DNA from: Candidatus Baldrarchaeum yapensis | Lineage (GTDB): Archaea; Asgardarchaeota; Baldrarchaeia; Baldrarchaeales; Baldrarchaeaceae | DNA length: 32,000 nucleotides | NCBI GenBank assembly: GCA_016840465.1 | Contig: JAEOSH010000017.1 | Coordinates: 1 to 32,000 of the forward strand | Direction: 5' to 3' | Part shown: positions 25,246 through 29,195 of the stretch, one piece after another | Numbering within the stretch: position 1 is the stretch's first letter | Layout of the letters: the number at the start of each line of letters is the position of its first letter | Translations under genes and position numbers: made by a program | The notes under the pieces: generated by a model | What the model saw: the letters and a program-made list of their open reading frames with translations, nothing else | Told to the model about the DNA's origin: nothing | The model's database searches: none

Positions 25246-26177
25246 ATGATGCTAAAGAACGTAATATTAATAACAATTGATTGCTTGAGACCCGATCATT
25301 TGAACTGCTACGGATATAAGCGTATAACGTCTCCGTTTATAAGTTCATTAGCGCGAACCGGCTGGATTTTCACAAATTTCTTTGCAAACTCTTCTTACAC
25401 GTGTGCATCAATAGCCTCAATGATCACCAGCACATATCCCTTTGACTACGGCGAGTACCTCGAGTTCTCCACACCCGCAAGATTGTCTAAAAAGAGACTA
25501 TTATTATCAGAAGTTTTGAAAAAGTACGGCTACTCAACGGCATTCTTTCACGATAACCCGTACTTATCACCAATATTCGGCTACAACAGGGGATTTGATG
25601 TTTGTATAGACTTTGGAAGAAAGGTGCTCAGTAGCATTAGATCCAAAAGAAGATTCCTCAATTTAATGTTCAAAAATAAGAAGATACAAGATCTGCTCTG
25701 GAAGATAAAGGATTTCGTCCTTCTGATAGATTGGTTCATACGAGGAAAACCTATACGGACCGATGCCGAAACAATATTGCGAGAAGCTTATAAGTGGTCA
25801 CGGAAGGCTAGCCGACCCTTCTTCCTCTGGATGCACCTCATGGATACTCACATACCGTATTCACCCAAGCATGAGGTGCTCAAACAATTCGGTATAAGCA
25901 AGCTCAGAGCCGCCATGATACTGTACAAACAGATATTCAGGAAGAATATTTCAAAAGAAGAAGTACGTCTGGTAAAACTATTATACGACTCTCAGATATA
26001 TCAAATCGACCAGGCATTGGCAAAATATCTGCCTAAGATGGTCAATCACGACTTCGAAGATACTTACATAATAATTACAGCAGATCACGGAGAAGAGTTC
26101 TTCGAAAACGGAAGAATAGGGCACTCAGGCGTCTTAACTGATACGCTACTACGCGTGCCACTGATAATATGTGGTGG
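25246..26177 (+). pseudogene. Sulfatase / alkaline-phosphatase-superfamily gene, 5' part, interrupted by IS607
   Basis: Motifs LITIDCLRPDH, HLMDTHIPY, YDSQI, ITADHGEEF, GH and RVPLII. The frame continues after the IS. Confidence 0.88.
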
Positions 26178-28027
26178 GCTGAAACGTATAGTGTTGCATT
26201 CGTAGCATTTAAGTACTTTTGTTGCATCAGATGATGTGATGACAAAATTATATAGAACTGGGAAGGTTGCGGAGATTCTTGGAGTAAATAGAGTTACGGT
26301 AATTAGGTGGATTAAGCAAGGTAAGATTAAAGCGGTGAGAGTTGGTAAAGAGTATAGGATTCCAGAAGATGAAGTGAAAAGATTACTTAAAGGTAAGGTT
26401 ATTAATACAGCGGTTATTTATGCTCGTGTGAGTTCTTCAGACCAAAGGAGCGATTTGGAGAGGCAAGTTGAATATCTTAAGGAGTATTGCACAGCTAGAG
26501 GATACAATGTAGTTGGTATTCTAGCAGATATTGCTTCTGGATTAAATGAAAAGCGAAGAGGTTTGAAAAAGCTGTTTGAATACGTTGTAAACGGAAAGGT
26601 TGACGTTGTAGTAATCAGCTACAAGGATAGACTTACGAGATTTGGGTTCAGGTATTTAGAAGAGTTCTTCAACTCACATGGAGTTAGAATTGAAGTCGTT
26701 TTCGGAGAAGAACCTAAGGATTTACAGCAAGAGCTAATTGAAGACTTAATTGCCATTGTAACATCATTTGCTGGTCGATTATACGGAATGAGAAGTCATA
26801 AAAAGAAGAAGGTGGTAGAGAGTGTCAAGCAAGCGATCAGAGACTGTTAAACTCACGGCAAGGTTCAAACTCGATGGTGAAGTAGATGAGAGACTGTTCG
26901 AAACGTACAAACGGATTGTCAATGAATTGTTGGATTACGCTCATTCCAAAGGAATTACCTCGTTCAAGAGACTGAAGTCCGAAAAATATCACGAGTTGAG
27001 GCAAGAGTACCCCGAATTGCCGTCTCATTACATTTACACGGCGTGCCAGATGGCTTGCTCCATCTATAAGTCGTTTAGAAAGCTTAAAAGAAAGGGAAAG
27101 ACAAAATCCGAAAAACCATTACTAAGGAAAGATGTAATTATGCTTGATGACCACCTGTTTAAGCTAGACTTGGAAAAATGGAAAGTCAGAATTTCTGTTC
27201 CCGATGGAAAATTGGAGTTTAAGCTTTTGCATGGAGAGTATCACGAGAGATTTAAGGACTGGAAGGTCGGTCAGGCATGGCTGGTCAGAAAGCCTGACGG
27301 AGTTTATCTGAACGTAGTATTCTCAAAGAATGTCGAGATGCTACATTGTGTGGATGTCATAGGTGTTGACGTGAACGAAAACAACATTACTGTTGCGACC
27401 AATCGGGGCTTTGTGAACTTTGGGACGAGAGAAAGGGTAATTAGAACCGCTTACTTCCTGAAGAGAAGGAGAATCCAAACCAAGATTAAGAGCAAGAGGG
27501 TTAAAGCTAGGATTTTGGCAAAATATCGTGATAGGGAAAGAAACAGGGTTCTGGACATTTACCATAAAGTTGCTAATGAAATTGTCAGATTGGCATTAAA
27601 AATGAGGTCTGCAATAGCCCTAGAAAGTCTCAAAGAAATAAGGAGTAGGATAAACTACTCAAAGGAGCTGAACGGAAGGTTGCATAGATGGAGTTTCAGG
27701 AGATTTCAACAAATATTGGAGTACAAGGCTAAACTCAATGGTATTGCGGTTATTTATGTCGATCCTCACAAAACCTCCCGCCTCTGCCCGATATGTGGGA
27801 GGAAGCTAAGCCCGAATGGGCGGAGGCGGTTGAAGTGCGAATGCGGGCTGGTTGCTGATAGAGATGTCATCGGTAGTTGGAATATCAGATTGAGAGGTTT
27901 GAGATCTTTAAAGATAGATGTGGGGAGCACCGTTCCCCCCGAAAGCCCGTCGATGAACCCCGAGACGGGAAGACTCTCCGCTACACATGCATCAAAAGTT
28001 GTGAAAGTAGCGGAGAGTCAGAACGGG
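26178..28027 (+). mobile_element. IS607-family insertion sequence (serine-recombinase tnpA plus tnpB)
   Basis: Removing 26178-28027 restores the host frame (TGT GGT GG|T TTA AAG). GG is present at both junctions, there are no terminal inverted repeats, and TGTTGCAT direct repeats sit in the left end (26192, 26220). Confidence 0.92.
26236..26850 (+). CDS. tnpA: IS607 transposase (MerR-like HTH plus serine recombinase)
   Basis: YRTGKVAEILGV HTH, VIYARVSS catalytic motif, YKDRLTRFG and ELIEDLIAIVTSFAGRLYGMRS. Confidence 0.96.
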   Translation: MMTKLYRTGKVAEILGVNRVTVIRWIKQGKIKAVRVGKEYRIPEDEVKRLLKGKVINTAVIYARVSSSDQRSDLERQVEYLKEYCTARGYNVVGILADIASGLNEKRRGLKKLFEYVVNGKVDVVVISYKDRLTRFGFRYLEEFFNSHGVRIEVVFGEEPKDLQQELIEDLIAIVTSFAGRLYGMRSHKKKKVVESVKQAIRDC

Positions 28028-28132
28028 TTTAAAGCACAAAGTGATCGACATAAAGGCATCCCTAATAGACCTTGCACCCACAATATTGGATCTTCTCGGA
28101 TTGAAAATTCCACGCCGCTTCAAAGGAACTAG
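26822..28132 (+). CDS. tnpB: TnpB RNA-guided endonuclease; the ORF reads through the right end into host DNA
   Basis: RuvC-I GVDVN, RuvC-II IALESL, CPICG/CECG Zn finger and RuvC-III DRDVIGSWNI. All three acidic residues are present. Confidence 0.94.
   Translation: MSSKRSETVKLTARFKLDGEVDERLFETYKRIVNELLDYAHSKGITSFKRLKSEKYHELRQEYPELPSHYIYTACQMACSIYKSFRKLKRKGKTKSEKPLLRKDVIMLDDHLFKLDLEKWKVRISVPDGKLEFKLLHGEYHERFKDWKVGQAWLVRKPDGVYLNVVFSKNVEMLHCVDVIGVDVNENNITVATNRGFVNFGTRERVIRTAYFLKRRRIQTKIKSKRVKARILAKYRDRERNRVLDIYHKVANEIVRLALKMRSAIALESLKEIRSRINYSKELNGRLHRWSFRRFQQILEYKAKLNGIAVIYVDPHKTSRLCPICGRKLSPNGRRRLKCECGLVADRDVIGSWNIRLRGLRSLKIDVGSTVPPESPSMNPETGRLSATHASKVVKVAESQNGFKAQSDRHKGIPNRPCTHNIGSSRIENSTPLQRN
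27917..28047 (+). ncRNA. Predicted TnpB omegaRNA (right-end scaffold plus about 20-nt guide TTTAAAGCACAAAGTGATCG)
   Basis: GATGTGGGG start, K-loop CCCGTC-GATGAACCCCGA-GACGGG (27946-27969), perfect 13-bp stem 27972-27984/28007-28019, then the element end. The 5' boundary is approximate. Confidence 0.7.
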
Positions 28133-28211
28133 CCTCTTAAGAAAGAAAAAATCGGATAAAGTAATAGCTCAGGGAATATTCCGTGGAGTGAGATACCAAA
28201 GAATAATCTAA
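28028..28211 (+). pseudogene. 3' part of the IS607-interrupted sulfatase-family gene
   Basis: Translates LKHKVIDIKASLIDLAPTILDLLGLKIPRRFKGTSLL..., the typical sulfatase C-terminal D-x-x-PT-x-L-D...G-x-SL pattern. In frame with the 5' part. Confidence 0.88.
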
Positions 28212-28227
28212 TCTGATTCTTCGATAA

Positions 28228-28310
28228 CTATATCTGACCATAACGGTGTACCTTCCTTTTGCTCTTATAAAAATCTATCAAGACGTCCGATCGATGAGAA
28301 TCTTCTCCAT
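28228..28310 (-). pseudogene. Frameshifted, truncated VapC/PIN toxin remnant
   Basis: ATG GAG AAG ATT CTC ATC GAT CG GAC GTC TTG ATA GAT reads MEKILID(T)DVLIDFYK if one A is restored. Closely parallels the VapC at 20204 (MEKVCIDTDVLI). Confidence 0.72.
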
Positions 28311-28546
28311 TCCGCTTCCCTCACCCGCCCTGCATAATCCTCGGCAGCCTCTATACTGACACTGGCCAGAATTTCCTTCACCTCATCCCCCAGATCCTCC
28401 AGCAACTCCTCGCTACTGATGATGCCCTCAAGCCTCCTAACGTAGTCTATGATCGCCTTTCGGGCAACCTCGCTCCACTTAACCTCCGGATGCTTCTTCA
28501 TAAGCTCGTAGATCTCCTCGGGTATCGATAATGTTATGTTTGGCAT
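28265..28546 (-). CDS. Ribbon-helix-helix antitoxin-like protein
   Basis: MPNITLSIPEEIYELMKKHPEVKWSEVARKAI fits the RHH pattern. The true start is ATG 28546, not 28873. Confidence 0.82.
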   Translation of the reverse strand: MPNITLSIPEEIYELMKKHPEVKWSEVARKAIIDYVRRLEGIISSEELLEDLGDEVKEILASVSIEAAEDYAGRVREAEWRRFSSIGRLDRFL

Positions 28547-28596: not shown

Positions 28597-28800
28597 GGGA
28601 TGAGCACCTAAGATGTGGTTGCCCGTGCGTTATCTTTTGGAAACTAAGGGTATTTTGGGAACCCGCACGGGCTTCCCCCTCGGCCGCCTCATCCCTCTTC
28701 GGCGGCCCATCGGGGGCCACATCGACGGGCACCACGGGGCCCGCCTCACGTGCGATCCGCCCACGCCTGATCGGGGCCGCCCGATCATCGGCACGGGCAC
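28597..28800 (-). ncRNA. Candidate stand-alone structured RNA (K-loop, three-way junction, possible pseudoknot)
   Basis: Strongly GC-rich island with nested complementary segments (see findings), starting about 25 nt downstream of a TATA box. Confidence 0.65.
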
Positions 28801-28822
28801 CACGATCAATGCCCCAGCCGGG

Positions 28823-28831
28823 TTTATAAAA
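28823..28831 (-). promoter_or_regulatory. TATA box TTTTATAAA for the candidate RNA / RHH operon
   Basis: Canonical archaeal TATA. The predicted start at about 28800 coincides with the beginning of the GC-rich structure. Confidence 0.55.
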
Positions 28832-29195
28832 GTTGGAGTTTCCACGATGGTTGAAAGTACCGGCAATATTCATCCTAGTGAATAGTCCTTAACTTCCCCT
28901 TCTTAGATCCTTAACTGTTATTGCCACGTCTATTGACGCAATCACTAATGCCACGGGTATAAGATACATTTCCAGCATCATGTAAGCCAATGGTCCACTC
29001 CTCAACCATCTGGTTGGTCTCTCAACCGGATTGTTCCTCCAAAGGTAGTTACTTAACCTCTGATAGGTTCTGTGCGCAGCCTCTAGTTACGTTGACAAAA
29101 ACAATCTTTTGGCGGCTCAATTCACCAGAAAAATCCGTATATATCAGCACACTCAAAATAGGAATCTGGAGATTCTGTGTAAGGGAGTGAGCGGC

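Follow-up and report, generated by a model that had tools for sequence, protein, structure and literature searches.

The window, by which we mean the whole 32,000-nucleotide stretch of DNA that was analysed, carries a complete IS607 element on the plus strand and, on the minus strand, a short open reading frame (ORF) preceded by a GC-rich island (Table 1). The GC content of this island is 72–77%, compared with roughly 42% for the background; in 100-nt windows it is 0.72–0.77 at the RNA and about 0.35–0.5 on either side. The minus strand of the island folds at −118.6 kcal/mol (z = −3.64), with none of 200 shuffled sequences folding as well, and the plus-strand fold is weaker (z of only −1.94). 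The original prediction described this segment as an unannotated, promoter-equipped gene for a structured non-coding RNA (ncRNA) that lies outside Rfam, and all of the motifs that it listed within 28597–28831 are present on the minus strand at those coordinates. A search of the whole window against Rfam 15 agrees with this description: there was no match at the gathering score, including none to a curated omega-RNA family, and to our knowledge most omega-RNA lineages are uncurated, so that a curated match does not define the class. The sole match in the window at E ≤ 10 was to an unrelated sRNA at chance level (11.4 bits).

The island belongs to a dispersed repeat. BLAST searches of the organism's own genome (2.27 Mb in 100 contigs, 96% complete) returned 13 pieces of this repeat, many of them at contig ends; about eight copies are present, each 206–275 nt in length with sharp ends, and a covariance model gives eight matches, two of which are decayed. 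Six copies from this genome and four from metagenomes share the 5′ end (G)GACTATTCAC at 28888/28887. The common 3′ end is GGGCAACCAC at 28615, beyond which the sequence diverges, and the DNA on both sides of the unit is unrelated between copies. The copies are 92–98% alike, and have therefore spread recently. Scanning metagenomes with the left-end pattern identified four contigs with complete long-form copies (272–277 nt, 92–95% identity) in other flanks. The two ends, GGACTATTCAC and GGGCAACCAC, are not inverted repeats of each other, and neither terminal inverted repeats nor a target-site duplication was seen at the copy junctions; because inverted terminal repeats are absent, the element is, to judge by its ends, PATE-like and not a classical MITE. 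One copy, on contig C74, is a short form of 206 nt without exactly the 68 nt that separate the two 12-mers of the long form. It lacks the long hairpin of domain 1 and looks like the product of a deletion between direct repeats; its GC-rich part starts exactly at the 5′ strand of the closing helix (see below), leaving a 122-nt core.

Table 1. Features of the repeat unit and its surroundings (positions in the window unless a contig is given; helices are written as 5′ strand/3′ strand).
Feature	Position	Strand	Detail and basis
Resident IS607	26178–28027	+	Complete; tnpA 26236–26850, tnpB 26822–28132
Resident-IS607 mini-copies (examples)	C89:68698–68969; C55:10106–10386; C27:9180–9452		
93-aa ORF (RHH of the original prediction)	28265–28546	−	Outside the element; start 68 nt past repeat end; ORF list
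Whole repeat unit, long form	28615–28888	−	About 274 nt; own-genome BLAST and flank comparison
AT-rich left end	28805–28888	−	Starts (G)GACTATTCAC, holds the TATA box; copy alignment
TATA-like box TTTTATAAA	28831–28823	−	Within the repeat; kept in every copy covering that part; sequence
12-mer CGTGGTGCCCGT, two occurrences	28804–28793 and 28736–28725	−	68 nt apart
Decayed TnpB C-terminal coding remnant	28640–28813	−	Two frames; BLASTP and ORF translation
Domain 1, long hairpin	28759–28798	−	Outer 28798–28790/28767–28759; inner, perfect 28787–28780/28775–28768
Closing helix, GUGGU (5′ strand)/ACCAC	28735–28731/28619–28615	−	Core three-way junction (proposed)
P2	28675–28716	−	Lower 28716–28712/28679–28675; upper 28707–28701/28688–28682; 12-nt apical loop 28700–28689
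P3	28621–28672	−	9-bp stem 28672–28664/28629–28621; A/U-rich 34-nt loop
8-nt complement (pseudoknot of the original prediction)	28695–28688/28604–28597	−	Sequence
AACCAC, final scaffold bases	28615–28620	−	Transposon right end; family alignment
Predicted guide segment	28595–28614	−	Flank directly 3′ of scaffold; inferred from the TnpB/omega-RNA arrangement (PMC8612924; PMC10055086)

Weaker matches to the repeat (66–80% identity) occur, several per genome, in three other genomes of the same phylum. In other hot-spring Thermoproteota, the GC-rich part has its homologue at the end of IS607-family tnpB genes, where it spans the last ~60 codons together with the right end that lies downstream. The match in genome G033 and that in G058 cover the final ~110 nt of same-strand ORFs that encode 437 and 458 aa, respectively, and carry the Pfam domain PF07282 (Cas12f1-like TNB domain). 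With the two proteins as queries, species genomes yielded more full-length copies, in hot-spring metagenome-assembled genomes (MAGs) labelled Desulfurococcaceae, Ignisphaera, Thermoproteota and ‘Njordarchaeota’. One of these loci (L054, which is G058:C133) is titled ‘Candidatus Njordarchaeota’ yet is placed in the phylum of the window genome; this discrepancy stems either from differing taxonomies of the sources or from a problem of binning. Full-length TnpBs with the RNA at their end are also encoded at loci L051–L053, L055, L060 and L062, of which L060 and L062 were found by model search; it is L060 that most resembles the RNA of the window (75% across 145 nt), and the two have an identical P3 loop. 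At L051 and L052, the coding sequence of a tnpA serine recombinase ends just upstream of tnpB, and L049 has a truncated, HTH-coding tnpA remnant there; the family is therefore of the IS607 type. The full-length element of G033 (L049/L010, G033:C26, 1–300) has its tnpA cut to this HTH remnant, whereas L051 and L052 keep the whole gene, and thus even tnpB-bearing copies are often non-autonomous.

Family members all stop at GGGCAACCAC, the transposon boundary, and continue into unrelated flank. Among the 31 aligned members, 9 lie at the end of a full-length TnpB ORF and 22 have no tnpB, so mini-forms are the majority in other genomes too. The tnpB-less members, many of them in G033 and G010, consist of a left end, the final ~60 tnpB codons and the right end. 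In the G033 sister family both ends are common to full-length and mini-forms. With full-length IS607-type elements elsewhere, the window element shares its right end and, at the left, only the first six bases (GACTRT), which are common to it and the related elements of G033 and G010, with nothing further shared; an A/T box comparable to its TATA-like box lies in the left end of related full-length elements, upstream of tnpA. Traces of the protein persist within the repeat. The frame from 28813 matches the C terminus of the L010 TnpB (BLASTP, 41% identity, E = 7 × 10−10), and a second frame (ORF 28630–28866) ends in KIPLVSKR, similar to the tail TKIPLVSKI of the L060 TnpB. By homology, the RNA occupies the place and strand of a TnpB omega RNA, the scaffold of which ends at the right end of the transposon, with the flank serving as guide (PMC8612924; PMC10055086).

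We conclude, with a probability of about 0.88, that 28615–28888 on the minus strand is a non-autonomous, protein-less derivative of the IS607 family, that is, an orphan omega-RNA mini-transposon. The whole IS607 coding core (the serine-recombinase gene tnpA and tnpB) would have been lost, fusing a promoter-bearing left end to a right end that, in intact relatives, overlaps the last ~60 tnpB codons and is predicted to encode the omega RNA (reRNA) scaffold. The box TTTTATAAA in the left end is the putative promoter of this RNA, from which transcription would begin near 28800. The RNA is predicted to form a long hairpin at its 5′ end and a three-way core (GUGGU/ACCAC, P2 and P3) and to extend past 28615, with the next ~16–20 nt of flank (28614–28595) acting as the guide; read-through would enter the region upstream of the 93-aa ORF. 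For the C74 short form, transcription is predicted to start at the closing-helix strand and to yield a minimal scaffold of 122 nt. Given a cognate TnpB, the ribonucleoprotein (RNP) would cut the empty donor site (target-adjacent motif (TAM) plus right flank), and the element would be retained through recombination. Movement would require the cognate serine recombinase in trans. The predicted guide flank is different in each copy. Second targets of the eight guides were sought in the assembly, and matches with up to three mismatches were at chance level only; a match of 15/16 comes from an A-rich guide, and a second one, on contig C9, involves a 13-mer look-alike and not a copy of the element.

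This arrangement resembles that of known IS607-family TnpB omega RNAs (CboIStron, 10.1101/2023.11.20.567912; RAGATH-18-derived, PMC11061315) in three respects: the RNA of intact relatives shares its strand and some of its sequence with the end of tnpB, the scaffold stops at the right-end boundary with a variable flank as guide, and the multi-helix scaffold has one helix adjoining the guide. The RNA studied here differs in being archaeal and GC-rich and in matching no curated omega-RNA family by sequence or in Rfam; in this genome it also stands without tnpB, with the putative left-end promoter driving it directly. At the left junction stands GAC, in most cases after a purine; this may represent the TAM, with AC as the core, and the right end has CCAC. 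In the Cbo IS607 element, the TAM (TGGG) and the element end (TCGG) likewise differ (10.1101/2023.11.20.567912), and the studied element resembles it in that its end, CCAC, is one base off the left-junction GAC; the presumed AC core dinucleotide would set it apart from the GG core of Cbo. Among archaeal RNAs, the sense-overlapping transcripts (sotRNAs) of IS1341-type tnpB genes (PMC4615843) are also ncRNAs from a tnpB 3′ end; these are transcribed within an intact tnpB, whereas the RNA studied here has no gene around it and is fused to the left-end promoter.

The original prediction had proposed looking in relatives for conservation and covariation. Homologues exist, and the domain-1 hairpin, P2 and P3 all covary. 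We built a covariance model on 17 sequences and realigned its 31 matches (alignment A3); a MAFFT alignment (A2) set P2b out of register between lineages, and A3 was used instead. In RNAalifold predictions for 16 members, domain 1 comprises 16 pairs, 7 of which have compensatory changes, which agrees with the perfect hairpin first noticed at 28787–28768. Double changes affect 3 of 5 pairs in the lower stem of P2, 4 of 5 in the upper stem and 7 of 10 in P3. In alignment A3, which was fitted to the model and thus leans somewhat toward the structure of the model, 15 of the 25 pairs of P2a, P2b and P3 have double changes and 89% of cells are paired, compared with 35–50% when the partners are slid; the observed values were reached by 0 of 500 shuffles. 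The P2 and P3 stems that had been proposed are thereby borne out. The P2 loop varies between copies in both sequence and length. The loop of P3 contains the region of the tnpB stop codon in tnpB-linked relatives. A string in this loop (GTTCCC...AAAAG) hinted at a CRISPR leader or solo repeat; we rejected that candidate, as the stretch is the tnpB stop region of relatives and the reading is also contradicted by the fixed 3′ end of the copies and the absence of a repeat array.

For the base of the core we propose that GUGGU/ACCAC closes the three-way junction. The helix is kept in 97.9% of cells and is nearly invariant, so covariation cannot prove the pairing and the helix is put forward as a proposal; an analogous closing helix next to the guide in the resident IS607 scaffold (CCGUUC/GAACGG) gives it some support. 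The P1 helix first suggested for this position, GATGTGG/CCACATC, does not fit the family. Of its seven pairs, three draw on flank sequence outside the repeat, and the middle pair of the helix does not form in 10 of 17 and in 16 of 30 sequences: CCAC is constant, whereas the 5′ base falls on a synonymous site of an old Val codon and is variable. A crossing, pseudoknot-like pairing of 28695–28688 with 28604–28597 had also been described. Its downstream partner is wholly within the flank, in the predicted guide, and none of the seven 3′ flanks of sister copies that were compared has a match; since the partner is outside the repeat and missing from those flanks, the pairing is a chance complement. 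The proposed switch, in which a 5′ GCCCGU competes for the 3′ strand of P3, is kept less well than P3 (5–9 of 30 cells broken per pair) and is impossible at L060, L061 and L062, which have GGGCAC or GGCGGU at that site.

The suggested K-loop holds for one copy only. The apical loop of P2 in the window (stem, GAA, GA, 5 nt, GA, stem) fits the consensus of a 3-nt bulge, GA, loop and GA and is like the L7Ae-bound K-loop and K-turn RNAs, such as box C/D C′/D′ motifs, but sister copies and relatives do not conform. In sister copies this region reads GAGGGGAUGA or GAGAGGGAUGA(A), 1–2 nt off the window copy, and relatives have loops of 9–11 nt of a different form (GAUAGGUGA, UAAUCAGAUGA and others); what they share is a loop that, for the most part, has GA at its start and GA at its end. 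In contrast to L7Ae K-loop RNAs, the pattern is thus not conserved, and there are no box C/D or H/ACA features. A rival reading takes the copies for a host family of sRNAs, an L7Ae-binding K-loop RNA that is merely repeated in the genome and would have a regulatory or scaffolding role independent of any transposon. The TATA box of the unit, the GC-rich island that is typical of structured RNAs in hyperthermophiles and the fit of the window copy to the consensus would all suit such a family. We nevertheless regard it as very improbable, given that the repeat unit takes in about 85 nt of untranscribed left end as well as decayed tnpB coding sequence, that the K-loop is lost in sister copies through changes of 1–2 nt in the loop and is absent in relatives, and that the RNA is distributed patchily, as expected of a mobile element: of 151 genomes sampled from the phylum, 7, from four families, contain a match to the covariance model.

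The surroundings of the window copy had suggested a different role, that of a cis-acting 5′ leader or switch of an operon encoding an RHH antitoxin and a VapC toxin. The ORF has the same orientation as the RNA, the element ends 68 nt before its ATG, read-through from the promoter is likely to enter the region upstream of the ORF, and alternative pairings can be drawn on paper. However, what is repeated, between sharp ends, is the entire unit with its promoter, and at every other copy its neighbours are unrelated: the sequence 3′ of each copy is different, with no conserved link to a downstream gene, and no related gene or sequence follows any of the other copies for which a 3′ flank was compared. 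A separate A/T-rich box lies about 30 nt before the ATG of the 93-aa ORF, and the pseudoknot and P1 that would tie the RNA to the flank are unique to the window copy. The 93-aa ORF matches no Pfam family at E ≤ 0.1, leaving its assignment as RHH without a Pfam counterpart, and the supposed VapC consists of about ten codons, after which it stops. This stub (28240–28303, minus strand) begins with ATG and MEKILID..., and a shifted frame adds about 20 PIN-like codons; the VapC toxin gene is decayed. We give a leader function for the RNA hardly any credence; the element came to lie 68 nt upstream of the RHH-like ORF by chance insertion. Truncation of VapC by the adjacent IS607 was considered and rejected, as this IS607 interrupts a sulfatase-like gene instead (flanks 25900–26177 and 28028–28211), the C-terminal host fragment of which is weakly similar to SGSH_C. 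The tnpB ORF of the IS607 runs to 28132, into the host gene, because there is no stop before the end of the element.

In the organism's own genome, a census of PF07282 identified three intact tnpB genes, and a census of PF00239 identified four to five small serine recombinases. Neither a TnpB cognate to the studied RNA nor a parent insertion sequence was found in the 96%-complete assembly or in the four metagenome contigs, and the metagenome scan with the left-end pattern returned mini-forms only, with no parent element. In tblastn searches of the genome with the L010 and L009 TnpBs, the best match was the TnpB encoded in the window (27–30% identity). By the covariance model, none of the three resident intact tnpB genes has the studied RNA at its end, and the left end of the mini-element shows no resemblance to the left ends of the resident IS607 elements. 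The studied RNA belongs to a tnpB lineage different from that of the neighbouring scaffold. As the assembly yielded no cognate nuclease and no cognate recombinase, the roughly eight copies are to be regarded as orphan guide-RNA genes.

The IS607 in the window has itself given rise to mini-forms. The genome contains at least 16 protein-less copies of ~270 bp (80–93% identity), which combine the left end (source 26170–26240) with the ~115-nt scaffold end (source 27912–28026); this is a clear parallel to the build of the studied element. The scaffold of the resident tnpB includes a plus-strand hairpin at 27946–27969 (CCCGUC, a 12-nt loop GAUGAACCCCGA and GACGGG), which fits the K-loop pattern, as does the window copy of the studied RNA.

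These similarities raise the question of whether the copies are a pool of guides used in trans by a divergent resident TnpB, such as that at 26822–28132, only ~480 nt away, with each copy giving one nuclease a different guide. The two scaffolds share a layout in which a 5′ strand pairs with the last bases before the guide, and each has an AA(G) linker and two hairpins, one whose 12-nt loop follows the pattern GNN-GA-N5-GA and one that is long and A/U-looped; GCCCGTCGATG occurs in both. The recent spread of copies that are 92–98% alike would also be compatible with such use, as would the view that PATEs depend on TnpB in trans (PMC10055086). Against this, the resident TnpB is just 27–30% identical to the TnpBs that bear the studied RNA, the scaffolds cannot be aligned by BLAST, the covariance model misses the resident scaffold and at least 16 mini-copies already form a separate family derived from the resident IS607. 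We therefore consider service to a divergent resident nuclease decidedly unlikely, and prefer the orphan omega-RNA mini-transposon. A broader and still speculative extension is that the tnpB-less elements, far from being dead relics, are a dispersed, promoter-driven library of guide RNAs for resident or incoming TnpBs in trans: two families, of about 8 and at least 16 copies, would serve few TnpB nucleases, and host L7Ae might be recruited through the K-loop-like hairpins of both scaffold families. We consider such a library unlikely; if it were real, it would stand, as an intermediate found in nature, between guides bound to a transposon and guides arrayed separately.

Protein-less guide-RNA mini-transposons are an already known kind of selfish element. 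PATEs are transposase-free derivatives of IS605/IS1341 elements that arose by core deletion in archaea (PMC3119063), and such derivatives frequently carry an omega RNA that depends on TnpB supplied in trans (PMC10055086). In the laboratory, a mini-IS607 without both genes was mobilised by TnpA in trans (10.1101/2023.11.20.567912). The element in the window is like the PATEs of Haloquadratum walsbyi (PMC3119063) and Geobacillus stearothermophilus (PMC10055086) in that it encodes no protein, lacks terminal inverted repeats and shows no evident target duplication. Further features in common are the origin by core deletion, which fuses the ends and sometimes leaves part of the C-terminal tnpB coding sequence, the frequent presence of an omega RNA dependent on TnpB in trans, and a shorter form produced by repeat-mediated deletion (here, 68 nt between 12-nt direct repeats). 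It differs in its parent, as PATEs are defined for IS200/IS605 elements with a Y1 transposase whereas IS607 uses a serine recombinase and a double-stranded circular intermediate, and in that the cognate autonomous element was not seen in the genome. The element is best filed as a new IS607-type lineage of the PATE/MITE kind from hyperthermophilic Thermoproteota, with an uncurated scaffold.

This assignment accounts for an unannotated, Rfam-negative, GC-rich RNA gene of a hot-spring archaeon as a guide-RNA mini-transposon, and removes the false lead of a toxin–antitoxin riboswitch with a K-loop and a pseudoknot. It also provides a covariation-supported scaffold model for an uncurated archaeal lineage of IS607 omega RNAs. 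The natural minimal form of 122 nt, together with the thermophilic TnpBs found elsewhere (L010, L009, L060 and L062), makes these systems candidates for compact, heat-stable RNA-guided nucleases. With its orphan copies and a second mini-family, the organism is a reasonable place in which to ask about the sharing of omega RNAs in trans. In the same genome, pieces of mobile elements are clustered on one short contig (C82:4835–6141), where a mini-copy of the resident IS607 and a left-end fragment occur together with the studied element, which is present at both contig ends.
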